A DNA stretch of 64,000 nucleotides, from NCBI GenBank assembly GCA_934444695.1, contig CAKSDF010000001.1, positions 1,446 through 65,445 on the forward strand, in the 5' to 3' direction. The notes beneath the pieces are model-generated. The model searched no databases. It was not told the DNA's origin and saw nothing but the letters and a program-made list of their open reading frames with translations. This DNA is from an uncultured Eubacteriales bacterium. GTDB taxonomy: Bacteria; Bacillota; Clostridia; Oscillospirales; Acutalibacteraceae. A program made the translations under genes and the position numbers. Of the stretch, positions 8,618 through 57,442 are shown piece by piece; positions within the stretch are counted from its first letter, which is position 1, and every line of letters starts with the position of its first letter.

Positions 8618-8633
8618 TGTTTCACGTGAAACA
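8618..8633. promoter_or_regulatory. parS: parS (ParB-binding centromere-like site), perfect palindrome TGTTTCACGTGAAACA
   Basis: Exact 16/16 match to the palindromic form of the Firmicute parS consensus TGTTNCACGTGAAACA. A-run on the left, T-run on the right. Intergenic. Confidence 0.85.
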
Positions 8634-27433: not shown

Positions 27434-27929
27434 ATTTCTTACCGTTCTTTCTTAAACATGTCCGATATTTTACTGTGTGTCGTTTGTTTTTTCTGACATT
27501 GGGTCGTAATTTTTTTTCGTCGTCTGTTTTGACCGTTTTTCTTTTTTTCTTATAAAATATTTTTTTCTCGTTCATTTATGTATTTGCAAGATAGATTTTA
27601 TCACACCCATTTTTCCTTTTCAAGACAAATGAAAATTTTTATCTTTTTGCCCCGTTTTATTAGTATTTTTATAATGTTTTTTAGGGGCTTTTTACTTGAT
27701 TTTTAAGGGGTTTTATGGTATTATATACAGGTAAAATTATATTTTGGGTTTTTAGCGTTTTCAATCTTTTTTGAGCGAATTTTCCCTTTTAATTTTTATT
27801 GTATTTTTTCCCTTTAAAACCAAAATTTTCGGGAAAAATTATCTTTATATTTTACAATGCCGTCGACCGAAAATTTTCCTTTAACGGTGTTTTCACAAGA
27901 CTATGACGGTTGAAAGAAGAGGAAGGTTT
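27434..27929. other. oriC: AT-rich non-coding region upstream of dnaA; candidate oriC part / dnaA promoter
   Basis: The position is canonical for Firmicutes and the region is very T/A-rich. Only weak DnaA-box-like 9-mers are present (TTTATCACA 27597-27605, GTTTTCACA 27889-27897); there is no perfect TTATCCACA. Confidence 0.35.
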
Positions 27930-29216
27930 ATGAACACATTTGAAGAGGTATGGGAGAATGTTTGTGCTCTTTGCCGGGAGGAAATTTCCAGCGTGGCTTA
28001 TAACTGCTGGATAAACACCTTATCGCCGGTTAAATTAAAGGGCAATGTGGCTGTTGTTTCTGCTCCCACAAATTATCAGAAAAATCTCACTATGAGCCAC
28101 TATAAGGATCTTCTCGAACGGGCATTTTCCGAGGTTTTCGGATTTAATGTCACGCTGGAGGTCATTTCGGATGAAAACAAGCCGGTAAGGCCCATCGAAA
28201 ATATTACCGAGAGCTTTACCTTTGACAATTTCATTGTCGGTCCGTCCAACGATTTTGCCCACGCTGCAGCGGTGGCGGTGGCAAAAAATCCCGGCAAGCA
28301 GTATAATCCCCTTTTCATTTACGGAAAGCCGGGCCTTGGTAAGACACACCTTTTAAACGCCATTAAAAACTATGTTTTGGACAAAAATCCCGGGTTTAAC
28401 ATTGTTTATACCCAAGGCGAGGCCTTTGCCAACGAGATAATCGACGCTATCCATTCGGGAAGCACACCTGATTTCAGGGAAAAGTTCCGCAACACCGATA
28501 TGCTTTTTGTGGACGATATTCAGTTCATTTCGGGCAAGGATTCCACACAGACCGAGTTTTTCAACACCTTTAATTCCCTTCACGAGGCCGGAAAGCAAAT
28601 CGTGCTGACCTCCGACCGTCCGCCAAAGGAGATTAACGCCCTGACCGAGAGACTTCGCCAGCGGTTTGAAATGGGTCTTTTGGCCGACATTAAGGAGCCG
28701 GATTACGAAACCCGCGTGGCCATCATCCGCCAGAAGGCCGAGGAGCTTAACTTTGAAATTTCCGACGCGGTGGCTCAGTGCATCGCCAATCAGATAAAGA
28801 CCAACGTCCGCCAGATTGAAGGGGTGCTCAACAAGCTCAAGGCATACACCGACCTTACCAGCGAAAAGCCCTCAATTTTCAGCGTTATAACGGTCATAAA
28901 CGAGATACGCAGGGACGAGATTGACAATACCATTACGGTTGAGAAGATAATCGACGCGGTGGCCAACGCCTATGACGTTACACCGGCCGACATCTGCTCT
29001 AAAAAGCAGCATATGGACATTTCCAATGCCCGCCATATCGTCATTTACATAGCAAGCCAGATGACCGGCCTGACCCTTAAGCAGATCGGCGACAAAATCA
29101 ACCGCAATCATTCCACCATTTCCGCCTCCCTTAACAAGATGGAAAAAGATCTAAAGAAAAATTCCCGTCTTAAGGCCAACATCGAGGACATTATGAAAAA
29201 CCTCAAGAACAAGTAA
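27930..29216 (+). CDS. dnaA: Chromosomal replication initiator DnaA
   Basis: ATG at 27930 follows AGAAGAGGAAGG. Walker A GKPGLGKTHL, and the domain IV signature (ISNARHIVIYIASQMTGLTLKQIGDKINRNHSTI). Confidence 0.95.
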   Translation: MNTFEEVWENVCALCREEISSVAYNCWINTLSPVKLKGNVAVVSAPTNYQKNLTMSHYKDLLERAFSEVFGFNVTLEVISDENKPVRPIENITESFTFDNFIVGPSNDFAHAAAVAVAKNPGKQYNPLFIYGKPGLGKTHLLNAIKNYVLDKNPGFNIVYTQGEAFANEIIDAIHSGSTPDFREKFRNTDMLFVDDIQFISGKDSTQTEFFNTFNSLHEAGKQIVLTSDRPPKEINALTERLRQRFEMGLLADIKEPDYETRVAIIRQKAEELNFEISDAVAQCIANQIKTNVRQIEGVLNKLKAYTDLTSEKPSIFSVITVINEIRRDEIDNTITVEKIIDAVANAYDVTPADICSKKQHMDISNARHIVIYIASQMTGLTLKQIGDKINRNHSTISASLNKMEKDLKKNSRLKANIEDIMKNLKNK

Positions 29217-30892: not shown

Positions 30893-30908
30893 TGTTTCAC
30901 GTGAAACA
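30893..30908. promoter_or_regulatory. parS: parS, perfect TGTTTCACGTGAAACA
   Basis: Exact 16-mer. Intergenic between dnaN and yaaA. Confidence 0.85.
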
Positions 30909-32860: not shown

Positions 32861-32876
32861 TGTTTCACGTGAAACA
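32861..32876. promoter_or_regulatory. parS: parS, perfect TGTTTCACGTGAAACA
   Basis: Exact 16-mer. Intergenic between remB and gyrB. Confidence 0.85.
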
Positions 32877-38860: not shown

Positions 38861-39397
38861 TCAATACTCCTTTTTTGCTTTGACGATACCTTTTAGGTAG
38901 GCAAAGGTTTTTTGCTCGCCCTTTTGCGCAAGCATTTTTAAAAGAAACTCGAGAAAGGCCGCCGTTTCGGGATGCATAGTGCGGGAATCGATGCCCTTCA
39001 TATAGTATTCGAGGGGATAGTTGTCGGTATAATCCTCTCCGCGGTATATCTTGCTGGCCGCTACCCTGTCGCAGAACATCTCGGCCGCATACCGAAGGGG
39101 CATTTTTACCGGACAGACCTGCTGCTTTTTAATGTCGAAATCGGTCCAGTATTCAAAATGATGCTTGTTTCTGCCCTTGTGGTGCATCCAGGCCGAGGAA
39201 TAGCCGAAAAGCTCGCGCTCGGTGACGTTGGGACTGCGTTTGCCGTTATAGTACTTTGCGCCGGGAATAAATTCGGCGGGAGAATATTTAGAAAGGTCGT
39301 GCAAAAGGCCGCGAAAGCCAAGCCCCGCTTTAAAGCAGTGGGATATGACCTTGTGGCGGTGTTTTGTTATTGTGCGAAAGTGCTTTAAGGGGTGCAA
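38861..39397 (-). CDS. Conserved hypothetical protein (resembles the DUF5662 family, from memory)
   Basis: 178 aa. HRHKVISHCFKAG...LLHDLSKYSPAEF...WMHHKGRNKHHFEYW is a His-rich conserved pattern. Confidence 0.45.
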   Translation of the reverse strand: MHPLKHFRTITKHRHKVISHCFKAGLGFRGLLHDLSKYSPAEFIPGAKYYNGKRSPNVTERELFGYSSAWMHHKGRNKHHFEYWTDFDIKKQQVCPVKMPLRYAAEMFCDRVAASKIYRGEDYTDNYPLEYYMKGIDSRTMHPETAAFLEFLLKMLAQKGEQKTFAYLKGIVKAKKEY

Positions 39398-39517
39398 AAA
39401 GGGTCCTCTCCTTGCTTAAGCTTTTGTGGCTGTTTTTTTGCTTTTGTTAAAATCCCGGCAAAGCTTTTTGTCAAAGGGGGATTTCCGTCCCTAAAAGGGG
39501 TTTCTTTTCGGGAAAAT

Positions 39518-40822
39518 TTATTCCTTCCCTTTTCTGACCAGCTTTTGAAAGAGAAAGCGGGAGGTATCCTCCACACGCTGCATGGCAATGTTGATTTCGC
39601 TGAAGGCGCGGCACATTTCGTCAAAACGCACCCTTTCCCTTTTGTGCTCGTCGCTTTTGAACCGTTCGGCCACATGCTCATACCGTTTTACCGCCTTTTC
39701 GACGGCATCGTCCCAGGAGATGTATATCTCGTCCATGGCGGTTTGGCCTAAAACCTTCAGTTTATCGCGATTGTCGCAGGCATAGGAAAGACATTTTGCC
39801 ATAGATTCGCCGTTTTCGTCGATCAAAAGGCCGGTTTTTCGGTCCTCGATGCCTTCCGAAGCGCAGCTGTCCTTAAGCAGAACGCTGGCCTTGCCGCAGG
39901 CTGCCGCTTCACGCACGACTATGCCGTTTGTGTCGAAAGAGGAAGGAAAAAGGAAAAGATCCGAAAGGGTGAAGTATCCGCGGATGGTCTCACGGTTATG
40001 TATGGCGCCGGTGAAAATGCATCGGTCGGAAATGCCCAAGGTTTTGGCGTAGGCCTCTATTTCCGGCCGCTCGACGCTGTCTCCCACAAAGATCATACGG
40101 AAGTCTTTTCCCTCTGCGGCAATTTCCTTTAATCCGTCGAGAATGATCCTTGCGCCTTTATACCACATCAGCCGTCCCACAAAGAGGAACACCGGGACAT
40201 CGGGCGAAAGATTATGCTTTGCCCGCAGCTCCTCCACAAGCTCATCGGAGGCAAGGCCCTTTGAAAGGTCAACGCCGTTTTCCATAACCACGTAGTCCCC
40301 TTCATATCCGAGACCGCGCAGATTTTCTCCGGCCCCCTTGCTCACCACCCACACCTCATCGCAGGCAGAAATGTTGTTTACAAGGAACTTTTTGGCGGTT
40401 TTGCGGAGGAAATTCATCTCCACCGCCTTGTTTATTTCGATGTCGAATTTTGTGTGGTAGGTGAAAACAATGGGAGCGTCGACCTCCTGCTGAACCATAC
40501 GTGCCAGAAAGGTTGAGGAAAAGGGACAATGGGTATGCAGCAGCACGGGATGCGACGATTTTATGGCATTTATGGCCTTTTTTCCGAAGGGATAGCCAAG
40601 GCGGTAGCCAAACCGCTTTGTTGTGTTTAAGCTTGAATACCGGATGACCGGAAAGTCGAAATTGCTGTCGTCGGCTCCGGGGTATGATGGTGTGGCCACC
40701 GTCACGTCGATGTCTTTGCCGGTCATATATTTTGCATAATTAACTACGGCGTTTTCCACCCCGTCGATAAGGGGCGGGAAAGAATCGTTTAAAAGACAAA
40801 CCGAGCCGTTTTTAAACATCAA
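39518..40822 (-). CDS. GT4-family glycosyltransferase
   Basis: 434 aa. N-terminus LLNDSFPPLIDGVENAV; C-terminal FPSSFDTNGIVVREAAACG (EX7E-like region). Confidence 0.75.
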   Translation of the reverse strand: MMFKNGSVCLLNDSFPPLIDGVENAVVNYAKYMTGKDIDVTVATPSYPGADDSNFDFPVIRYSSLNTTKRFGYRLGYPFGKKAINAIKSSHPVLLHTHCPFSSTFLARMVQQEVDAPIVFTYHTKFDIEINKAVEMNFLRKTAKKFLVNNISACDEVWVVSKGAGENLRGLGYEGDYVVMENGVDLSKGLASDELVEELRAKHNLSPDVPVFLFVGRLMWYKGARIILDGLKEIAAEGKDFRMIFVGDSVERPEIEAYAKTLGISDRCIFTGAIHNRETIRGYFTLSDLFLFPSSFDTNGIVVREAAACGKASVLLKDSCASEGIEDRKTGLLIDENGESMAKCLSYACDNRDKLKVLGQTAMDEIYISWDDAVEKAVKRYEHVAERFKSDEHKRERVRFDEMCRAFSEINIAMQRVEDTSRFLFQKLVRKGKE

Positions 40823-40862
40823 ATCACCTTATCTTAAATGATTAAACGATTATATGCGGAAA

Positions 40863-42134
40863 TTATCCGATAATGTCGGTGTTCATATACTTTCTAAGCA
40901 CCTCGGGAACGGTAACGGTACCGTCGGCGTTCTGATAGTTTTCAAGAATTGCGGCCACCGTTCTGCCAACGGCAAGGCCCGATCCGTTGAGGGTGTGTAC
41001 AAACTTGGCTTTATCACCGGCTCCGTCCTTATAGCGGATGGCGGCGCGGCGGGCCTGATAATCCTCGAAATTGGAGCAGCTGGAGATCTCGCAATAGCGG
41101 TTGTAGCTGGGCAGCCATACCTCGATGTCGTAGGTCATTGCCGAGGAAAATCCAAGATCTCCGGCCGACAGGCAGACAACACGATAGGGCAGTCCAAGCA
41201 TCTGAAGCAGCTTTTCGGCGTCGTTTGTAAGGGTTTCAAGCTCGTCGTAAGAATGCTCGGGCTTTACGAATTTAACAAGCTCGACCTTGTGGAACTGGTG
41301 CTGGCGAATAAGGCCTCTTGTGTCCCTTCCGGCAGAGCCTGCCTCGGCGCGGAAACAGGCCGAGAATGCGCAATATTTAAGGGGAAGCTTGCTGCCGTCG
41401 AGAATGTCGTCACGATACATATTCGTTACCGGAACCTCGGCGGTGGGGATAAGGAACTCGTCCGAGCCGTGGATGCGATAGGCATCCTCCTCAAACTTGG
41501 GAAGCTGGCCGGTGCCGGTCATGGATGCGCGGTTGACGAGATAGGGCGGGATGATCTCCTCATAGCCGTTGTCGGCGTGGGTGTCCATAAAGAAGCAGAA
41601 AACGGCGCGCTCAAGACGTGCGCCCAGTCCTCTGTAAAAATGGAAGCGCGCGCCCGATACCTTGGCTGCGGTTTCGGGATCGAGAATGCCCAGATCCTTG
41701 CCCAGATCCCAGTGAGCCTTGGCTTCAAAATCAAACTTTCTCGGCTCGCCCCAACGGCGCAGTTCGCGGTTTTCCTTGTCGTCCTCACCGTCGGGAATGG
41801 TGGGGTTGGGCATATTGGGAATGGAAAGAAGGATGTTTCTCTGCTTTTCGGTCAGCTCGGAAATCTCCTTGTCGCATTCCTTAACATCGTCGGAAAGGGT
41901 CTTCATGCGGGCCATAATCTCCGAAAGATCGCCGCCCTCCTTTTTGATGCGGGGGATTTCCTTTGATGCGGCGTTTTGCTCGGCCTTGAATTTATCGGCC
42001 TTACTGCTGATTACACGGCGCTGCTCGTCGATTTTAAGCAGCTCGTCGATGGCGGCGGAATAATCTCCGTTGCGGCGGTTGACGGCCGCTTTGACCGCCT
42101 CGGGATTTTGTCTTATAAGTTTAATATCTAACAT
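40863..42134 (-). CDS. serS: Seryl-tRNA synthetase
   Basis: 423 aa. N-terminal coiled-coil arm ([12 protein letters not shown]...) and class II motifs ([29 protein letters not shown]). Confidence 0.95.
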
Positions 42135-42149
42135 AAATTACCAACCTTT

Positions 42150-42995
42150 CTATTCTCCCAGCTTGTTTGCCAGATCCTTTAATTCGTTGACGTTGTAAAA
42201 TTCTATTTGAAGTGTGCCCTTACCCTTGTTGGCCAGCACCTTTACCCTACGGCCGAGGTTTTCCGAAAGCGAAAGCTCAACCTCGTCGTAAATGCTGGGG
42301 CGGGAACGCAGTTTCGCCATTTTTTTACGTTTATCGGCTTCGTTTGCGTTTTTGGCCATATCCTCGATGGTGCGGACGTTTGCGCCGGTGGATGCAGCCT
42401 TTGCCGCCTTGCGAAGTGCGCGTTTATCGGTAAAGGCAAGCAATGCACGGCCATGGCTGGCCGAAATGATGCCGGTTTTCATCAGCTCGAGAATGTCGTC
42501 GGGAAGCTCGAGCAGACGGATGGAATTGGCCACCGCCGAACGGGATTTGCCCATTCGCTCGGAAACCTCCTCCTGAGTCAGGCCGAAGTCGTCCATAAGG
42601 CTTTTATATCCGGCCGCCTCTTCAACCGGATTAAGATCCTCTCTCTGGAGGTTTTCCACAAGGGCTATTTCGGCCGTTTGGGAATTGCTCAGCTCCTTTA
42701 TGACCACCGGAACGGTGGAAAGGCCGGCAATGCGGGAGGCCCGCCAACGACGCTCACCTGCCACAAGCTGATAGCGGTCGCCCTTTACCGGACGCACCAC
42801 AAGGGGCTGAAGCAGGCCGTATCTTTTGATGCTGTCGGCCAGCTCCTCAAGAGCCTCCTGATCGAAGTCTTTACGGGGCTGATCCCGGTTAGGTTCGATA
42901 TCCATAATGGAAATTTCGGCGGGAGAATTGGGTTCTGTGGTGTTTTCGGCAAAAAGCGAGCCGAGACCTTTATTGAGTCCGCCTTTCTTGGCCAT
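42150..42995 (-). CDS. parB: Chromosome partitioning protein ParB/Spo0J
   Basis: 281 aa. LGKGLGSLF-like N-terminus, the ParB box GERRWRA, and the HTH region LTQEEVSERMGKSRSAVANSIRLL. Confidence 0.9.
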   Translation of the reverse strand: MAKKGGLNKGLGSLFAENTTEPNSPAEISIMDIEPNRDQPRKDFDQEALEELADSIKRYGLLQPLVVRPVKGDRYQLVAGERRWRASRIAGLSTVPVVIKELSNSQTAEIALVENLQREDLNPVEEAAGYKSLMDDFGLTQEEVSERMGKSRSAVANSIRLLELPDDILELMKTGIISASHGRALLAFTDKRALRKAAKAASTGANVRTIEDMAKNANEADKRKKMAKLRSRPSIYDEVELSLSENLGRRVKVLANKGKGTLQIEFYNVNELKDLANKLGE

Positions 42996-43078
42996 TTAAC
43001 TCATCCTTTCTTTTTTGAACATAAATATGTATGAAGATTGCTGCCGATAATGGGGGCGTTTATAATGCTTAGAAAAAA

Positions 43079-43310
43079 TGTTTCACGTGAAACATTTTTA
43101 AAAACATATCGCCCGAAGGCCTTTATTTCAAGGGCGTGCAGCCTTTTGAAACGGGTGGATTTAAGCCTGTTCGGCGTCCGGTTTAAACGATCGGATGGGC
43201 AGCAAAATCAATTGAATCCGTTTTGGGAAATAAATTGTTTCACGTGAAACAATTTTTAAGATAAAATGGGATGACGCGGAATTTAACAACAAAATGTTTC
43301 ACGTGAAACA
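43079..43310. promoter_or_regulatory. parS: Three perfect parS sites in the parB-parA spacer (43079-43094, 43236-43251, 43295-43310)
   Basis: Each is an exact TGTTTCACGTGAAACA. The last two are 59 bp apart. Confidence 0.85.
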
Positions 43311-43320
43311 TTTTTTCGCT

Positions 43321-44088
43321 TTATTTTTTGTTGCGCTTTAAAAGCTCCTTTGAAAGCTCGCTGTATGCTCTGGCGCCCTTGGAGGATTTATCGTAGTACA
43401 TTATGGGCAGGCCGTAGCTGGGGGCTTCGGAAATTCTGACCGCACGGGGAATGGCGGTTTTAAAGAGCTTTTTGGGGAAGAACTTTTTGACCTCCGAAAC
43501 CACCTGACGGGTAAGGTTGAGGCGGTTGTCGTACATGGTCAGCACGATTCCCTCAATTTCAAGAGAGGGGTTGTAAAGCCGCTTTATCTGCTTTGTTGAC
43601 GATACAAGCTGAGAAAGTCCTTCGAGAGCGTAATATTCGCACTGAATGGGGACGATCATGGTGTCGGCGGCGCAAAGGCAGTTTATTGTAATGAGGCCGA
43701 GGGAGGGCGGACAATCGATGAAGATGTAGCTGTATTTGTCGACGATGGGAGCAAGCGAGCGTCGAAGGCGGGAATCCCGCTGTTCCATAGCGCAAAGCTC
43801 GATTTCGGCGCCTGCAAGATCAATGCTGGAGGGAATGATGTCCACTCCCTGAAATTTTGTGTGAACTATGGCCTTTTTAACCGGCTCGGAGCCTATCAAA
43901 AGGTCATAACTGCTTACTTTAACATCTCTTTTGTCGATTCCGTAGCCGCTGGTGGCGTTTCCCTGAGGATCAAGGTCCACAAGAAGCACCTTTTTGCCCA
44001 GCTTTCCCACTCCCGCCGCAAGGTTGACCGCCGTTGTGGTTTTTCCGACGCCTCCCTTTTGGTTGGCAATGGCAATGGTTTTAGACAA
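43321..44088 (-). CDS. parA: Chromosome partitioning ATPase ParA/Soj
   Basis: The ORF extends to a GTG at 44097. I prefer the TTG at 44088, 6 nt after GAGGTG, which gives MSKTIAIANQKGGVGKTT (deviant Walker A). Confidence 0.9.
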   Translation of the reverse strand: MSKTIAIANQKGGVGKTTTAVNLAAGVGKLGKKVLLVDLDPQGNATSGYGIDKRDVKVSSYDLLIGSEPVKKAIVHTKFQGVDIIPSSIDLAGAEIELCAMEQRDSRLRRSLAPIVDKYSYIFIDCPPSLGLITINCLCAADTMIVPIQCEYYALEGLSQLVSSTKQIKRLYNPSLEIEGIVLTMYDNRLNLTRQVVSEVKKFFPKKLFKTAIPRAVRISEAPSYGLPIMYYDKSSKGARAYSELSKELLKRNKK

Positions 44089-44272
44089 GCATAACACCTC
44101 TTATTTGTCTGAAAATGCAGATTTGTGTGCATCCTGCGCCGCAGCAAGCGGGTTTTGGAACGCATCTTTTTAAATCATATTATATAATCATATTATATAT
44201 TGTAAGTATATCACAATGTCGGACAAAATAAAAGGGGTTTTTATCCGTTAGGGCATATTTTTTGCTGCAAAT

Positions 44273-44409
44273 TGTTTCACGTGAAACAATTTGCAGTCCA
44301 AAAAAGAAAACAGCCCGGTTTTCCGCAAAAAAATGTTTCACGTGAAACAATTATTGCGGTCAAATAGATCGCGGTAAAAAATATCCGAAGAAATGTTTCA
44401 CGTGAAACA
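44273..44409. promoter_or_regulatory. parS: parS triplet (44273-44288, 44334-44349, 44394-44409)
   Basis: Exact 16-mers with 61- and 60-bp spacing. Confidence 0.85.
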
Positions 44410-44644
44410 TTCCGAAGGTCAATATGGTTTGCGGGATTTTCGACTGCCGTGTTATTTGATGAGGCAGCGAAGCATTAATATTGCACATATTTCTGTTGCG
44501 ATATATATTTTGGCAGAGGCGTATGGTATACAATACGGTTACATCTCGATTATATCAGTCGTCCGCAAAAGCCAAATATATAGGCTTGCAAAGTGATTAA
44601 ACAATGCGCTGCATCTGATCGGCAAAGAAATATAGCTAATAAAT

Positions 44645-44721
44645 TGTTTCACGTGAAACAATTATTGTTGTCAAAAGCGATGCGGCTTGAATTTTCCGAA
44701 AAAAATGTTTCACGTGAAACA
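44645..44721. promoter_or_regulatory. parS: parS doublet (44645-44660, 44706-44721)
   Basis: Exact 16-mers with 61-bp spacing. Confidence 0.85.
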
Positions 44722-44953
44722 TTTTATAAATACATTATAAATGCAATGCTCTATCGGCTTTGTTGCAAAGACCGACTGCTGCCTTGTGGGACGTGGTACA
44801 CAGGCGGTGAGGTGGCAATTGTGCCTTGTAAAGCGCAGCGAAATATGCTACAATAATGAAGAAAAAACATATGGCACTTTCGGAATAAATGGTCAATCTA
44901 TCTATGGCGAGGCAGCGCCTGCGCTCCGATATGTGCAAAGACGGATTAAAAAT

Positions 44954-45091
44954 TGTTTCACGTGAAACAATTTTAACCCACAAATCGAATGCATCCCGGA
45001 ATTTTCGCAAAATAATGTTTCACGTGAAACAATTATGACCGAAAAACAATAATCCGGGGAAAAACAAAGAAAAAATGTTTCACGTGAAACA
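44954..45091. promoter_or_regulatory. parS: parS triplet (44954-44969, 45016-45031, 45076-45091)
   Basis: Exact 16-mers with 62- and 60-bp spacing. The last site ends 14 nt before the next CDS. Confidence 0.85.
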
Positions 45092-45105
45092 TTGGCGGTG
45101 AAAAA

Positions 45106-46338
45106 ATGAAGGAAAGATACGATTTAATCATAGTGGGCGGCGGTGCGGCAGGACTGTTTGCGGCTGCATATATCAGCGACAAAGCTCCCGAGTTGTCGGT
45201 TTTGGTTCTTGAGGGCAACGACAGGGTGGGCAAAAAGCTGCTGACCACCGGCAACGGACGGTGCAACATCTCAAACGCCTCCAATTTGGAAGGGAAGTAT
45301 CACGGCGGGGTTGATTTTGCACGGGATGTCTTTAAAGGCTTTACACGGGAAGAAACGCTGGAATTTTTCAAAAAAATCGGCATACCGACGGTTGAAGAGG
45401 AACAGGGGAAGCTTTTCCCCATGTCCCTCCAGGCGGGATCGGTGGTGGATGCCCTGCGATTCAAGGCCGATGAGAGTGCCGACATAATCTGCGGGGGACG
45501 TGTTTCGGCCATATCCTATGATAAAGACATCTTTGTAACAAGCGATAAGGGTGTTTTTTGCTGCAGCAACGTGCTTGTGGCCTGTGGAGGCAGAGCGGCG
45601 GCCAATACCGGCTCCGACGGCAGCGGTTATGAGCTTTTAGAGGCCTTCGGACATCGCTGCAATCGGTCATTTCCTGCCATAGTTCAGCTTATAACCGACA
45701 CCAAAAAGACCAAGCCCCTTGCCGGAATCAAGTGGATCTGCAAGGTCACCGCAAGGGCAGGCAATCAAAAGCGTGATGAAAAGGGTGAGGTGCTTTTTAC
45801 CGATTACGGTCTTTCGGGGCCTCCCGTTCTTCAGATTTCCAGGCTGATATCCATGCGGGGCAAGGGAGAAATATCCCTCGACCTCTTTGACGGGACCGAC
45901 AAACAGGATATTTTCGGCGAAATCTCCCGAAGAAGGGCGGAATTTGCCGACAGAGAGTGTATGGAGCTGCTGACCGGCCTCATAAACAAGCGGCTTGGCC
46001 AGACGGCCGTTAAATCGGCGGGAATATCCCTTTCGAGAAAATGCGGCTCGCTGACCGATGCCGAAATCGATCGAATTGCCGAAACCCTTAAGAATTTTAC
46101 CCTTACGGCCATCGGGACAAAGGGCTGGAATATGGCTCAGGTTACGGCAGGAGGAATCGATCCATTCGATTTTTATTCCGACAGTATGGAATCCCGCCTT
46201 TACGAGGGAATTTATGCCGCCGGAGAGATACTGGATATCGACGGAGACTGCGGCGGATATAATCTTCAATGGGCATGGTCGACGGCGGGACTTGCCGCCC
46301 GGGCGGTCATTAAAAAGGTGAGAGAAAACAATGCTTAA
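45106..46338 (+). CDS. HI0933/YhiN-family FAD-dependent flavoprotein (BaiN-like / aminoacetone-oxidase family)
   Basis: YDLIIVGGGAAGLFAA and GKKLLTTGNGRCNISN, with a C-terminal GGYNLQWAWSTG motif. Confidence 0.8.
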   Translation: MKERYDLIIVGGGAAGLFAAAYISDKAPELSVLVLEGNDRVGKKLLTTGNGRCNISNASNLEGKYHGGVDFARDVFKGFTREETLEFFKKIGIPTVEEEQGKLFPMSLQAGSVVDALRFKADESADIICGGRVSAISYDKDIFVTSDKGVFCCSNVLVACGGRAAANTGSDGSGYELLEAFGHRCNRSFPAIVQLITDTKKTKPLAGIKWICKVTARAGNQKRDEKGEVLFTDYGLSGPPVLQISRLISMRGKGEISLDLFDGTDKQDIFGEISRRRAEFADRECMELLTGLINKRLGQTAVKSAGISLSRKCGSLTDAEIDRIAETLKNFTLTAIGTKGWNMAQVTAGGIDPFDFYSDSMESRLYEGIYAAGEILDIDGDCGGYNLQWAWSTAGLAARAVIKKVRENNA

Positions 46339-47938
46339 AATAACCGGAGTAAAAATTCCCACAACGGCAGATTTTTCGCAGCCGAGCAAACTGGTGGCCG
46401 ATATTTTCGGCATCAAGGGAAATGCTGTAAACAGCGCAAGCCTTGTCCGCCGTTCTCTCGATGCGCGCAAAAAGAACGACATACATTATGTCTGTTGCTT
46501 TGAATTTGAAATCGCGGGCGATGAGAGGGCATTTATCAAAAAATACGGCTCAAAAAAATCGGTCATTACAGCCGATAGCAAGAATGAAAACGATGCATTA
46601 CACGACAAAAATATTTCTATCGGCTGTAAAGGCAAGGTTTACATAATCGGAAGCGGACCGGCAGGCCTCTTTGCCGCATTAACACTGGGGAAAGCGGGGT
46701 TTTGCCCCATTATTTTAGAACGGGGCGAAAATGTTGAAAATCGTGTTGAAACCGTTAACAATTTATGGAACAATGGCGTTTTTTGTCCTGAATCTAACAT
46801 TCAGTTCGGTGAAGGGGGCGCCGGCACCTTTTCGGACGGAAAATTAAATTCCGGCATAAAGGACAGACGCTGCCGTGAGGTTTTAAAAATATTTTCGGAA
46901 AACGGCGGCGGTGATGACATTCTTTATGAGGCCAAGCCCCACATTGGAAGCGACCGTCTTTTTCATACCGTCAGAAACATAAGAAAGCAGATTGAGAATT
47001 TCGGCGAGGTCAGGTTCCGCCACAAGCTGACCGACATCATTGTCGAGCAGGGCGCCCTGCGTGCCATAAAGGTCGAGACCGAAAAGGGTGAACACACCAT
47101 AGACTGCGACCGCCTTGTACTTGCGGTGGGACACAGCGCCCGTGATACCTTTGAAATGTTAAAATTCCGCGGTCTTTCAATCGAGCCTAAGCCCTTTGCT
47201 ATGGGGGTGCGGATTGAGCATCCTCAGGAACTGATAAACAAGGGGCAGTACGGCGACCATTACGATAAAAAGCACCTGCCCCCCGCTGATTATAAGCTTT
47301 CTACCCACCTGAAAAACGGGCGAGGAGTTTTCAGCTTTTGTATGTGTCCCGGCGGGCAGGTGGTGGCTGCAGGATCGGAGATCGGCGGCGTTTGCACCAA
47401 CGGAATGAGCCTTTCGGCCAGGGACGGCGAAAACGCCAACAGTGCACTGCTTGTGGGCATTTCTCCTGCCGATTTCGGCAAAAGCGGTGATGTGCTTGCG
47501 GGAATGTATCTTCAGCGAAAGATCGAGCAGGCAGCCTTTAAAGCAGCGGGAAGCAATTATTTTGCACCGGTGCAGCGGGTGGGCGATGCCCTTAAAAACC
47601 GCCCGTCCGAGGTGCTTGGCAGCGTTAGACCTACCTATCTTCCGGGGGTCAGTCTTGTACCCATATGGGACTATCTCCCGAAATTTATGGCCGATTCGAT
47701 AATCGAGGCGCTGCCGATTTTTGCAAATAAAATCAAGGGATTTGATATGCCGGATGCCTTGCTTACAGGACCGGAGGCTCGTTCCTCCAGTCCCGTAAGA
47801 CTTTTGAGAAACGACCGGGGCATTGCAAATATCGGCGGGATCTACCCTTGCGGAGAGGGCGCAGGATATGCCGGCGGAATAATGTCGGCGGCGGTGGACG
47901 GAATTAAAACGGCCGAAAAAATAATTGAAAACGCCTGA
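46331..47938 (+). CDS. Uncharacterised FAD-dependent dehydrogenase (COG2509-like)
   Basis: 535 aa. VYIIGSGPAGLFAA dinucleotide motif and C-terminal GEGAGYAGGIMSAAVDG. Overlaps the previous CDS by 8 nt. Confidence 0.7.
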   Translation: MLKITGVKIPTTADFSQPSKLVADIFGIKGNAVNSASLVRRSLDARKKNDIHYVCCFEFEIAGDERAFIKKYGSKKSVITADSKNENDALHDKNISIGCKGKVYIIGSGPAGLFAALTLGKAGFCPIILERGENVENRVETVNNLWNNGVFCPESNIQFGEGGAGTFSDGKLNSGIKDRRCREVLKIFSENGGGDDILYEAKPHIGSDRLFHTVRNIRKQIENFGEVRFRHKLTDIIVEQGALRAIKVETEKGEHTIDCDRLVLAVGHSARDTFEMLKFRGLSIEPKPFAMGVRIEHPQELINKGQYGDHYDKKHLPPADYKLSTHLKNGRGVFSFCMCPGGQVVAAGSEIGGVCTNGMSLSARDGENANSALLVGISPADFGKSGDVLAGMYLQRKIEQAAFKAAGSNYFAPVQRVGDALKNRPSEVLGSVRPTYLPGVSLVPIWDYLPKFMADSIIEALPIFANKIKGFDMPDALLTGPEARSSSPVRLLRNDRGIANIGGIYPCGEGAGYAGGIMSAAVDGIKTAEKIIENA

Positions 47939-48159
47939 TAGCTATAAAATCAGTGGATTGGAAGTGTTAAAGGGGTCGGCCGGATGTTATATGCAGCGGG
48001 ATTGACAGCGGCAGATAATCGCAATTCGCACTGTGCCGTTCCGGCTGAACTGCTGCATATTATTGCTGCGCTGCATAATGCCGCAGCGGTTTGCTATCAT
48101 ATATATTATGGCCGCCATGCCGGCGACGGTTGGACAAATTGCCTGAAAGGAGCCTTTAA

Positions 48160-48594
48160 ATGAGCAAACAAAACAATTTGAAACCTCTGTCCGAGCAGGA
48201 TGTAATATCCGTTTGCAAGGAGCTTTTCGGTGGGCAGGCTGTTATCGACAACCCCTTTTCCACCACTGATGCCACGGTTTTGCGCCATCGGCAGAGCCGC
48301 AAATGGTTTGGGTTGCTGATGAATGTGCCTCTAAAAAAGCTGGAAGGGCGCGATAACGGCCTCAAAGGGCAAGAATCGGGAGAAAAAGCGCAAAACAGCC
48401 CTACGGCCTCGATTCTAAATTTAAAGGCCGATCCTCTGCTCGAGAGGGATGGCAGGGTTGTTCTTCCCGCCTATCATATGAGCAAAAAGCATTGGATTTC
48501 TGTGGTGCTCGGGAGGGTCGAAAGGAATCAGCTTGAGTATCTGCTTTGCCAAAGCTTTGAGCTGACAAAGGCAAAATCTAAAAGGCAGATGTGA
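48160..48594 (+). CDS. MmcQ/YjbR-family protein
   Basis: 144 aa. RKWFGLLMNV...PAYHMSKKHWISVVL is the characteristic YjbR pattern. Confidence 0.7.
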   Translation: MSKQNNLKPLSEQDVISVCKELFGGQAVIDNPFSTTDATVLRHRQSRKWFGLLMNVPLKKLEGRDNGLKGQESGEKAQNSPTASILNLKADPLLERDGRVVLPAYHMSKKHWISVVLGRVERNQLEYLLCQSFELTKAKSKRQM

Positions 48595-48787
48595 TGGGAA
48601 AAGCGGTTTTGTCCGTTAATCCCGGCATACGTTTTGCCGATCCGATAAACATAACTGTTCTGAATTACGATGCTGATACCTTAAACCCGACGGTTTATCC
48701 GTCGGTTATTTTTTTGCAGAAACTGATTTTTCGCTATAGCCTAAGTCCCTTGTTTTATGCGGGTTTCAGCAATTTTAAAATCAAAAA

Positions 48788-48880
48788 TGTTTCACGTGAA
48801 ACATTTTTTAAAGCGTTTTTGGAGAAGCAGCCGATACCGCCGAAATTGTAAAAACCATAATAATTGTTTCACGTGAAACA
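48788..48880. promoter_or_regulatory. parS: Two perfect parS sites (48788-48803, 48865-48880)
   Basis: Exact 16-mers with 77-bp spacing, intergenic. Confidence 0.85.
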
Positions 48881-48991
48881 TTTCATAAAGAAGTTTGTGC
48901 GGTGTGCTGTATAGTTGCTATGGTATCTGGTCTTTTTCGGCTGTTCGGAATCCCGATTGAGTGCGATTAAATTAAGGCTGTTTTTTCATTC

Positions 48992-49135
48992 GGCCGCTGA
49001 GGCGGTCTCGGCGGGGCCGAGACCGGAGGGAGCAGTGATTTGAAAAATTTACGATAAAGCAAAGCCTTCATTTTAAATTATGCCTGCGGTTTTATCATAG
49101 CCTCCCTCCGATCAGCTTGCGCTGATAGCCTCAGC
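48992..49135 (-). repeat. Four-helix interspersed repeat, copy F (canonical order on the minus strand)
   Basis: Plus strand: GGCCGCTGAGGC / GGTCTCGGCGGGGCCGAGACC / GGAGGGAGC ... GCCTCCCTCCG / ATCAGCTTGCGCTGAT / AGCCTCAGC, followed by TTTTTTT. Confidence 0.8.
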
Positions 49136-49254
49136 TTTTTTGCAGCCCGCCACGATTTGTTCCTTTTTGATTTGGAGATATAGCAGGGTTTATTGTTGCT
49201 GCAAAATGGCAATATTATACAATATATCTGACTTTAAAAGCGGTAGACGGCGTA

Positions 49255-49281
49255 ACATCGGCGGCGGGGCGGCATACAATA
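49255..49281 (+). promoter_or_regulatory. Possible sigma-K-type (mother-cell) promoter upstream of dpaAB
   Basis: AC (49255-49256), 16-nt spacer, CATACAATA (49273-49281). This fits the B. subtilis sigma-K consensus AC-N16/17-CATANNNTA, and spoVF is sigma-K dependent in B. subtilis. Confidence 0.3.
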
Positions 49282-49301
49282 TATTAAAATAAAAAAATGA
49301 G

Positions 49302-50144
49302 GTGAAGCCTTTGGACGATAAAATATATGCTGCCGTCTTCGGTCTTGACGATAGAACAAAACATATTAAAAATGCTCTTGAACAAAGAGGATATGAGGTA
49401 ATTTTGGGTGATCTGTGCGATGGCCGGAAAGACGTCGGGCGATGGATAAACAGCTGCGATATGATATTTTTGCCTGCCCCGTTAACGGCCGACGGGCGCA
49501 GTATTCGGTCGGTCAAAAGCCGGGAGGAGCTGTCGAAATTCTTTCGTTCCCTGCCCAAGGTTCCGATTTTTTGCGGGCGCGCCGACAAAGAAATTATGAA
49601 AGCGGCAGCCGATGCAGGTCTAGAGATATACGACTGCTTTGAGCAGGAAAGCTTTAAGATCAAAAATGCGATTCCCACTGCCGAGGCCGCCATCGGGCTG
49701 GCCATATCCTACACCAAAAACACCCTTTGGAACAGCAAAATCCTCATACTCGGCTATGGCAAAATCGGAAGAGCTCTTGCCTTCAGACTCAAAAATTTCA
49801 CAAGCAGCAGGGTTGGAGTTTGTGCCCGAAAGCAGCACACGAGGACGCAAATCACTTGCGACGGATTGTCCGCAATTGACGATTTGAACGGAGATTTCGG
49901 CAATTTCAACATAGTTTTCAACACTGTTCCGTCCATAATTATCACCAAGGAAATCCTAAAAAACGCAAGGGATGACTGTCTTATTATCGATCTTGCATCC
50001 CGCCCGGGAGGCACCGATTTTGAGGCTGCAAAGGATTTTTCGGTGACTGCCGTGCACGCACTTGCCCTTCCTTCAAAGACCGCGCCTCTTGCTGCGGCCG
50101 ATATTTTTGTTGACACGGCCCTGAAAATTTTTAATGGGAGGTGA
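49302..50144 (+). CDS. dpaA: Dipicolinate synthase subunit A
   Basis: 280 aa. The start is GTG 49302 or TTG 49311. Rossmann motif ILGYGKIGRALAFRL, and it is adjacent to dpaB. Confidence 0.8.
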   Translation: MKPLDDKIYAAVFGLDDRTKHIKNALEQRGYEVILGDLCDGRKDVGRWINSCDMIFLPAPLTADGRSIRSVKSREELSKFFRSLPKVPIFCGRADKEIMKAAADAGLEIYDCFEQESFKIKNAIPTAEAAIGLAISYTKNTLWNSKILILGYGKIGRALAFRLKNFTSSRVGVCARKQHTRTQITCDGLSAIDDLNGDFGNFNIVFNTVPSIIITKEILKNARDDCLIIDLASRPGGTDFEAAKDFSVTAVHALALPSKTAPLAAADIFVDTALKIFNGR

Positions 50145-50148
50145 TAAA

Positions 50149-50721
50149 ATGAACAAGCTGAAAATAGGTTTTGGCATATGCGGTTCCTTTTGTACATTCC
50201 ACCGCATTTTCCCCATTCTGCAGCAGCTTAAAGAGGCGGGATACGACATCTATCCCATAATGTCAAAAGCGGCCTTTACCACCGATACGAGGTTTGGAAA
50301 AAGCGCCGAAATAAACCAAAAAATCGAGGAAATATGCGGGAGAGAGATAATTTCCACACTGTCGGCCGCCGAGCCCATCGGTCCCAAAAAAATGCTTGAT
50401 ATAATGGCCGTGGTGCCCTGTACCGGCAACACCCTTGGCAAGCTTTCCTGCGGCATAACCGACACCCCCGTTACCCTTGCCGTCAAGGCTCATCTGCGCA
50501 ATTCCCGCCCGGTGGTCATAGCCGTTTCAACCAACGACGCACTGGCCGCATCGGCGCAAAATATCGGCAGGCTGCTCAACAATCGCAACATCTTCTTTGT
50601 GCCCATGAAGGAGGATGATCCGCAAAACAAACCCACCTCCCTTGTGGCCGATTTTTCGAGGGTTGCCGAGGCCATTGAGAGGGCGCAGTACGGTCAGCAG
50701 CTCCATCCGTTGTTTGCATAG
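50149..50721 (+). CDS. dpaB: Dipicolinate synthase subunit B (flavoprotein)
   Basis: ATG at 50149 (MNKLKIGFGICGSFCTF). About 190 aa, flavoprotein fold pattern. Confidence 0.85.
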   Translation: MNKLKIGFGICGSFCTFHRIFPILQQLKEAGYDIYPIMSKAAFTTDTRFGKSAEINQKIEEICGREIISTLSAAEPIGPKKMLDIMAVVPCTGNTLGKLSCGITDTPVTLAVKAHLRNSRPVVIAVSTNDALAASAQNIGRLLNNRNIFFVPMKEDDPQNKPTSLVADFSRVAEAIERAQYGQQLHPLFA

Positions 50722-57426: not shown

Positions 57427-57442
57427 TGTTTCACGTGAAACA
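57427..57442. promoter_or_regulatory. parS: parS, perfect TGTTTCACGTGAAACA
   Basis: Exact 16-mer, intergenic upstream of argF. Confidence 0.85.

Follow-up and report, generated by a model that had tools for sequence, protein, structure and literature searches.

Why should a bacterial chromosome carry eight perfect copies of its partition site in a single gap between two genes? The question is raised by a stretch of 64,000 nucleotides (the window) from contig CAKSDF010000001.1 of an uncultured Eubacteriales bacterium, in which the 1-kb interval between parA and a divergently oriented flavoprotein gene (44098-45105) contains an array of parS, the binding site of the partition protein ParB. It has been asked more generally why parS sites differ in number when one suffices, and what drives the sites to cluster (PMC7333895). 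We find that the array is probably the core of a chromosomal centromere beside parAB, a multi-site predicted ParB loading platform that was amplified from a two-site module, and that the expansion from this module is recent.

Using an exact-match scan, we were able to place TGTTTCACGTGAAACA at 44273, 44334, 44394, 44645, 44706, 44954, 45016 and 45076, in agreement with a first-pass annotation of the sequence that had listed eight sites at these starts, 60-62 bp apart within clusters. The start-to-start steps are 61 and 60 bp in cluster 1, 61 bp in cluster 2, and 62 and 60 bp in cluster 3, and the three clusters (3, 2 and 3 sites) are 251 and 248 bp apart. The sites match the 16-bp palindromic parS consensus tGTTNCACGTGAAACa, and the same string as in the window serves as the parS consensus in PMC10197239. 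In total, the window contains 17 perfect sites where dinucleotide-preserving shuffles give an expectation of 0.03, and no copies with 1-4 mismatches were seen in its 64 kb. The nine perfect sites outside the array start at 8618, 30893, 32861, 43079, 43236, 43295, 48788, 48865 and 57427 and are distributed as follows.

8618 to 8633, unstranded: single perfect parS, intergenic.
30893 to 30908, unstranded: single perfect parS, 40 nt past the end of dnaN.
32861 to 32876, unstranded: single perfect parS upstream of gyrB, kept in the related locus L124.
43079 to 43310, unstranded: three perfect parS (43079, 43236 and 43295) in the 325-bp parA-parB gap (42996-43320).
48788 to 48880, unstranded: pair of parS (48788 and 48865) in the yjbR-dpaA gap.
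57427 to 57442, unstranded: single perfect parS, intergenic.

The pair at 43236 and 43295, which the first-pass annotation had reported with a spacing of 59 bp, is real, and a third site of the same parB-parA gap, at 43079, had been overlooked. Around parA, 11 perfect sites lie within 2.0 kb; 13 of the 17 fall in the 5.8-kb span at 43.0-48.9 kb, and the whole set is contained in 49 kb. Every one of the 17 is intergenic, in seven separate gaps of a window that a crude open reading frame (ORF) model puts at ~82% coding; by our arithmetic, the probability of seven independent gaps capturing every site is ~0.18^7 = 6e-6.

The exclusively intergenic placement could also be taken as a sign of hairpins resembling repetitive extragenic palindromes (REP-like), that is, bidirectional terminators or RNA-stability palindromes that coincide with parS. 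Most of the sites have an A-run upstream and a T-run downstream, which extend the palindrome to 20-26 bp and at most to 32 bp, and several stand close behind genes (40 nt past dnaN, 10 nt past the stop codon of parA). In cluster 1, a 32-bp perfect palindrome, CTGCAAATTGTTTCACGTGAAACAATTTGCAG (44265-44296), encloses the first parS and has a predicted RNA hairpin of -20 kcal/mol; this extension is missing from the related loci L121 and L124. However, the sites agree exactly with the universal parS consensus and have the gene for their cognate ParB alongside, the predicted RNA hairpins are mostly weak (-5 to -12 kcal/mol), a terminator scan of the gap returned 0 sites, and the 13 sites at 43.0-48.9 kb are gathered around parAB, not spread behind genes. 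We therefore regard this explanation as very unlikely, with a secondary role of the sites as weak bidirectional terminator hairpins being possible.

The interval between parA and the flavoprotein gene is made up of the following parts.

44206 to 44216, minus strand: putative parA promoter with the extended -10 element TGTGATATACT, a promoter-like conserved block.
44273 to 44409, unstranded: cluster 1, parS at 44273, 44334 and 44394, with alpha- and beta-type spacers.
44410 to 44644, unstranded: segment A, 235 nt, found in this genome only, with no homologue in the relatives.
44645 to 44721, unstranded: cluster 2, parS at 44645 and 44706, with a beta-type spacer.
44722 to 44953, plus strand: segment B, 232 nt of conserved non-coding DNA carrying the flavoprotein promoter TTGTAA-N17-TACAAT at 44826-44854.
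44954 to 45091, unstranded: cluster 3, parS at 44954, 45016 and 45076; spacers of the alpha and gamma types, and 14 nt between the end of the last site and the ATG.

Three families are seen among the spacers: alpha (after 44273 and 44954), beta (after 44334 and 44645) and gamma (after 45016). They are common to different clusters and different genomes, and we therefore conclude that the array was built by duplication and reshuffling of units consisting of parS and a spacer of ~44 nt. Identity across all pairs of spacers is 54-72%, compared with 51 +/- 6% for shuffles (maximum 65%), and is clearly above chance only within families, where it reaches 71-88%; inside the window, spacers of the same family show 71-74% identity to each other, and they match their L121 counterparts at 73-84%. 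The resemblance among spacers that the first-pass annotation had described is thus real and beyond chance within the three families but weak overall, and its proposal of a duplicated parS-plus-spacer unit is borne out by the families that are shared. Tandem Repeats Finder did not report the array even at a score of 30, exact direct repeats in the gap reach 24 nt at most, and every spacer is unique, which points to old, diverged duplications rather than recent head-to-tail copies. A 10.5-bp helical periodicity of the spacing was absent over 144 paired-parS loci (Rayleigh R = 0.058, p = 0.62), from which we conclude that the regularity of ~60 bp is a by-product of unit duplication and not of helical phasing. 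The uniform phased array of the earlier description accordingly gives way to three clusters with three spacer families, interrupted by segments A and B.

The two interrupting segments have different histories. Segment B has orthologues in L121 (z = 33) and L124 (z = 17), where they likewise lie between the parS clusters. No homologue of segment A was found in any relative or other fetched locus, and its sole resemblance, a weak one (z = 6.3), is to the promoter segment of L121 in inverted orientation. The possibility that segments A and B are copies of each other was rejected (z = 0.5).

Comparison with related loci, anchored on the identity of their flavoprotein to that of the window, shows a graded series.

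L129, L126, L125, L172 and L171: flavoprotein 53, 61, 62, 71 and 72% identical; gap of ~160-180 bp where measured; 2 parS, one often with 1 mismatch.
L124: flavoprotein 89% identical; gap of 497 bp; 3 parS.
L121, L122 and L123, three independent assemblies: flavoprotein 96% identical; gap of ~605 bp; 5 parS (3 + 2).
The window and L251: flavoprotein 100% identical; gap of 1008 bp; 8 parS.

The comparison of the parA-upstream interval among relatives, which the first-pass annotation had proposed as a check, thus reveals copy-number variation from 2 through 3 and 5 to 8 sites. All relatives, at 53-100% identity, share the gene order serS-parB-parA with the flavoprotein gene in divergent orientation. 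By this comparison, the ancestor had two parS in a divergent promoter region of ~170 bp between parA and the flavoprotein operon, the first abutting the parA promoter and the second lying between the -10 element and the ribosome-binding site of the flavoprotein operon. In the clade with at least 89% flavoprotein identity, both sites were then multiplied by duplication and reshuffling of the units of parS and ~44-nt spacer, with unrelated DNA inserted as well, taking the interval from ~170 to 497, 605 and 1008 bp and the sites from 2 to 3, 5 and 8.

Two further gaps have expanded in the same neighborhood. Between parB and parA the genes overlap in L126 and are separated by 8 bp in L129, 165 bp in L125, 168 bp in L124, 322 bp in L121 and 325 bp in the window, with one parS in L125 and L124 and three in L121 and the window. 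Since parA and parB overlap or stand 8 bp apart in the distant relatives, we conclude that insertions carrying parS have forced the operon apart, and parB, now split from parA, may require a promoter of its own. The yjbR-dpaA gap (48595-49301) has gained a parS-bearing block of ~530 bp that L124 (13345-13513) is without. This block contains both parS of the gap and a strong G+C hairpin, GGTCTCGGCGGGGCCGAGACC, and has no Rfam match; in L122 (4690-5600) the gap has one extra 61-bp unit with a one-mismatch parS.

Rapid copy-number change of this kind, among close relatives and in three gaps (parB-parA, parA-flavoprotein and yjbR-dpaA), could also be expected from a neutral or self-propagating expansion, in which slippage or unequal recombination in permissive near-origin DNA multiplies ParB-bound sites that are harmless and bring no benefit. 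In favor of this idea, a single parS is enough in model species and cells tolerate added parS only when these are close to the native locus or the origin (PMC7333895), and other lineages independently gave rise to regular, young tandem arrays. However, between the window and L121 the non-parS DNA is 73% identical while the shared 16-mers are all identical, which has a neutral probability of ~5e-18. Spacers that have drifted to ~70% identity around 16-mers that are all perfect call for purifying selection on each copy and not on a single one, and the window holds no site with 1-4 mismatches. Because every copy stays perfect while the spacers drift, we consider a neutral expansion unlikely.

The placement of the sites relative to the promoters raises the possibility that they are mainly or additionally operators, with ParB acting as a repressor or roadblock on the parA and flavoprotein promoters, a role that is compatible with that of a centromere. 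The promoter TTGTAA-N17-TACAAT is conserved in 8/8 genomes, and in all eight, 12-16 nt lie between the end of the last parS and the ATG. In the two-site relatives, one parS is upstream of this promoter and the other starts 0-22 nt past the -10 element and so covers the transcription start; in L126, the former of these sites is ~32 nt from the extended -10 element of parA. The motif of that element, TGTGnTATACT, is common to the window, L121, L124, L125, L126, L129, L171 and L172. In Pseudomonas aeruginosa, ParB represses promoters beside parS3 and parS4 (PMC5521831). In the expanded clade, however, including the window, the next parS downstream is 93-99 nt away from the -10 element, and strict operator geometry has therefore not been kept. 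In addition, loss of Spo0J in Bacillus subtilis leaves the expression of parS-adjacent genes unchanged (PMC7022226), repression does not need multiplied sites, and six further sites (8618, 30893, 32861, 48788, 48865 and 57427) lack such a promoter context. That the sites serve mainly or additionally as operators is thus possible but on the doubtful side; an added regulatory role for ParB is plausible in the two-site relatives and weaker in the window.

The genes that would act with the array, and those that locate it on the chromosome, are these.

42150 to 42995, minus strand: parB, Spo0J-type, 281 amino acids (Pfam ParB_N, HTH_ParB and ParB_C).
43321 to 44088, minus strand: parA, Soj-type deviant Walker A ATPase, 255 amino acids, TTG start (Pfam AAA_31, CbiA and ParA).
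45106 to 46338, plus strand: gene for an HI0933-like flavin adenine dinucleotide (FAD) flavoprotein, divergent from parA, with cluster 3 in its leader and synteny kept in all relatives.
27903 to 29216, plus strand: dnaA, followed by dnaN, recF, gyrB and gyrA (to 38722), all on the plus strand.

ParB of the window aligns to Thermus thermophilus Spo0J (1vz0, E = 2.5e-56) and B. subtilis Spo0J (6sdk, 7e-54), and the alignment includes the GERRWRA box (GERRxRA, in the N-terminal CTP-binding region) and ENLQREDLNPVEEA. An exact look-up of this ParB sequence gave no match. ParA has the KGGVGKTT motif; its ORF extends to a GTG at 44097, and the gene is called with 255 amino acids in L124 and L251. 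The block from dnaA to gyrA lies 5-16 kb from the array. Beside the array, the minus strand encodes a glycosyltransferase, serS, parB and parA, and beyond the 1-kb gap the divergent HI0933-like gene is followed by a second FAD protein, yjbR and dpaA/dpaB. From this neighborhood of dnaA to gyrA, serS-parB-parA and dpaA/dpaB, we conclude that the array belongs to the origin region of a spore former of the Clostridia. Among the sampled genomes, the nearest named relative is a metagenome-assembled genome (MAG) of the Acutalibacteraceae, with a ParA that is 66% identical. The cumulative GC-skew minimum is near 24 kb of the window. No perfect DnaA box, TTATCCACA, was found in the 64 kb, though dnaA is present, and one-mismatch boxes number 21 where 10.6 are expected.

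This context bears on the plasmid-centromere-like architecture that the first-pass annotation had seen in the array, and more broadly on whether the locus is an integrated plasmid or phage partition system, or has a repeat count inflated by faulty assembly. A series of centromere sites next to parA does recall sopC of plasmid F, and paired perfect parS occur on 41 contigs of a viral collection. Nothing, however, ties the locus to a plasmid or phage: its neighbors are housekeeping genes, gene order is preserved in relatives of 53-100% identity, ParB belongs to the chromosomal Spo0J type, and a BLAST search of the interval against 72,556 plasmids gave no match. As for an artefact, the spacers are unique and no exact direct repeat is longer than 24 nt; L251, which belongs to another ENA assembly and is set apart from the window by 3 single-nucleotide polymorphisms (SNPs) in 13,233 bp, has the identical eight-site array, which is therefore not a product of assembly, and three independent assemblies agree on the five-site allele. 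Both a plasmid origin and a mis-assembly are contradicted by these data and are highly improbable.

The viral contigs (L130-L170) have their two perfect chromosomal-type parS 47-77 bp apart, and could be phage-plasmids, mis-binned chromosomal pieces, or phages that borrow the host centromere.

What would a chromosome do with so many sites? From what is known of the ParABS family, a strong ParB loading platform would be the array's most likely role. ParB dimers are expected to bind parS, close to clamps that depend on cytidine triphosphate (CTP), and slide to the flanking DNA, and the partition complex would be moved by ParA and would load SMC. With 11 sites in 2 kb and 17 in 49 kb, the flux of clamp loading should be well above that of a single site, and any benefit of the extra copies would be expected on the same family knowledge. 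In vitro, ParB-dependent condensation force and clamp-loading rate increase with parS number (PMC8299390), and in vivo, dense parS clusters near parAB act as centromeres in Myxococcus xanthus (PMC3899335, PMC3778016). Several points weigh against a centromeric platform. The parS assignment in this uncultured organism rests on sequence, and the concentration of sites in the origin region is seen within 64 kb. One parS is enough for segregation in several model species (PMC7022226, PMC7333895), and extra copies may therefore bring no benefit. Finally, the operator-like placement in the two-site relatives suggests control of transcription as part of what the sites originally did.

The two roles can be combined in a more tentative proposal, which we hold to be possible rather than probable: a ParB-operator pair on the divergent parA and flavoprotein promoters became a multi-site ParB loading hub by unit duplication, under selection on every copy and with the operator geometry loosened, along a recurrent route by which bacteria tune parS dosage. 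That the route is recurrent is suggested by the independent, younger tandem arrays in other Firmicutes. If the proposal is true, the natural 2-, 3-, 5- and 8-site alleles would be an experimental handle on what drives parS number and clustering, the question left open in PMC7333895. The counts of perfect sites, 2, 3, 5 and 8 in one interval of close relatives, form a natural copy-number series, which is the main value of the locus; it also shows each copy being kept by selection while the spacers drift. These alleles can be compared for ParB-CTP loading, condensation, SMC recruitment and plasmid stabilisation, and a parS between a promoter and a ribosome-binding site is a simple test case for regulation of a neighboring operon by chromosomal ParB. 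Apart from the allele series, the element is an ordinary chromosomal centromere.

The interval had also been described as gene-free, and we find no conserved ORF in it, but promoters are present. The only long ORF, of 91 amino acids (44735-45010, minus strand), was rejected as a gene on alignment gaps in the relatives that are not multiples of three, and the small ORFs were rejected as artefacts that are not conserved. Many spurious ORFs start with MFHVK because an A followed by TGTTTCACGTGAAACA reads ATG TTT CAC GTG AAA; in all frames of 44098-45105, spurious ORFs start with MFHVK or contain VSRET. Gene callers may thus annotate false small genes in parS arrays, for example the calls of 33 and 61-62 amino acids in L121-L123. 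Rfam searches of the gap at gathering and permissive thresholds gave only chance microRNA-type matches, and scans of the gap for tRNAs and tmRNA gave nothing. A tandem duplication of 13 bp, AATCATATTATAT x 2.1 (44173-44199), is located where the parA leader is predicted to begin and makes the TATAAT that was scored best by the promoter scan; this duplication is missing in L121, L122 and L124.

Some differences between close relatives stand apart from the array. The parB start in L251 (3888; window 42993) reads ATT and not ATG, and the gene is called 30 codons shorter, which is explained either by a strain in which ParB initiation is altered or by an error in sequencing. Another SNP of L251 is at the base immediately 5′ of the parS at 43295. 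Compared with its flanks, the 12-kb segment of the window from the DUF5662 gene to dpaB (38861-50721), with parAB and the arrays, is inverted in L124 (4512-14924); the inversion is flanked by gyrA on one side and rny on the other, with no parS at the breakpoints.

How unusual, then, is the array? We scanned one genome per species for two perfect parS with a gap of 31-61 nt and obtained at least 120 loci from many phyla, a scan that yields examples and not frequencies. Among the matches listed, 62 loci have parA, and 49 of these have at least 2 perfect parS within 1 kb upstream. The number of perfect sites per 8-kb locus is 2 in 69 loci, 3 in 30, 4 in 9, 5-7 in 11 and 10 in one, again among the matches listed, and the window, with 13 over 5.8 kb, is at the top of this conditional sample. 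Tandem arrays were found in several lineages: 55-bp units x 9.4 with 88% matches in an uncultured Bacilli MAG (L071, 5382-5896), in the region from a deaminase gene/gyrA to dnaX-recR; 57-bp units x 5 between gidA and gidB in a Lachnospiraceae MAG (L106, 6466-6710); 46-bp units with 7 perfect and 1 imperfect parS upstream of parA-parB-serS in a Lachnospiraceae genome (L040, 1014-1353); and a compound repeat with seven parS on a Paceibacterota chromosome (L066, 1473-1842). The arrays of L071, L040 and L106 resemble that of the window: the perfect 16-mer is the same and lies in gaps without genes in the origin regions of chromosomes. Their units, however, are young, nearly identical and detected by Tandem Repeats Finder, whereas those of the window are old, diverged and mixed with inserted DNA. 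In a literature search with incomplete coverage, we found no description of parS amplification or evolution, or of natural tandem chromosomal parS arrays.

Tight iteration had been taken by the first-pass annotation as a hallmark of plasmid centromeres, a generalization that does not survive the M. xanthus cluster, the 49 of 62 parA loci and the tandem arrays of the Firmicutes. The plasmid example, sopC of plasmid F, consists of twelve 43-bp direct repeats, each with a 16-bp inverted repeat bound by SopB. As in the window, units of a palindromic ParB-family site and a spacer, presumably duplicated, lie beside an operon of the parA/parB type. However, sopC is regular and head-to-tail, on a plasmid and downstream of sopB, whereas the window array is chromosomal and upstream of parA. 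Nor is the window array a regular head-to-tail series of near-identical units of fixed length: it is irregular, with three clusters, three spacer families and two inserts, is silent in Tandem Repeats Finder, and has the chromosomal parS consensus.

In B. subtilis, Streptomyces coelicolor, Listeria innocua and Corynebacterium glutamicum, parS sites extend across tens to hundreds of kb and are often inside genes, in contrast to the 11 sites within 2.0 kb, all intergenic, of the window. The sets of Bacillus, Streptomyces, Listeria and Corynebacterium nevertheless belong to the same ParB/Spo0J-parS system, with the same 16-bp consensus and multiple origin-proximal sites that load ParB and SMC. The number of parS per species ranges from one to more than 20 (PMC7333895), with 10 origin-proximal sites in B. 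subtilis, 10 in C. glutamicum and 20-23 in S. coelicolor and L. innocua (PMC7022226, PMC7333895, PMC7083940), and with 1-10 sites in gut Clostridia of the OMM12 consortium (PMC10197239).

The closest counterpart in density is that of M. xanthus, where a 3-kb cluster of 22 parS, located ~4 kb upstream of parA, is bound by ParB in vitro (PMC3899335; 24 sites in PMC3778016). Both are dense many-site clusters beside chromosomal parAB, some tens of kb from the origin, with about one site per 140 bp in M. xanthus and 8 per kb, or 11 per 2 kb, in the window. The M. xanthus consensus differs (TGTTCCACGTGGAACG) and its sites vary, whereas those of the window are all perfect; unlike that cluster, the window array sits in a divergent promoter region, has parA split from parB, and belongs to a 2-3-5-8 series in relatives. 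Dense chromosomal parS clusters have thus already been described, and the array is an unusually dense case of a known element.

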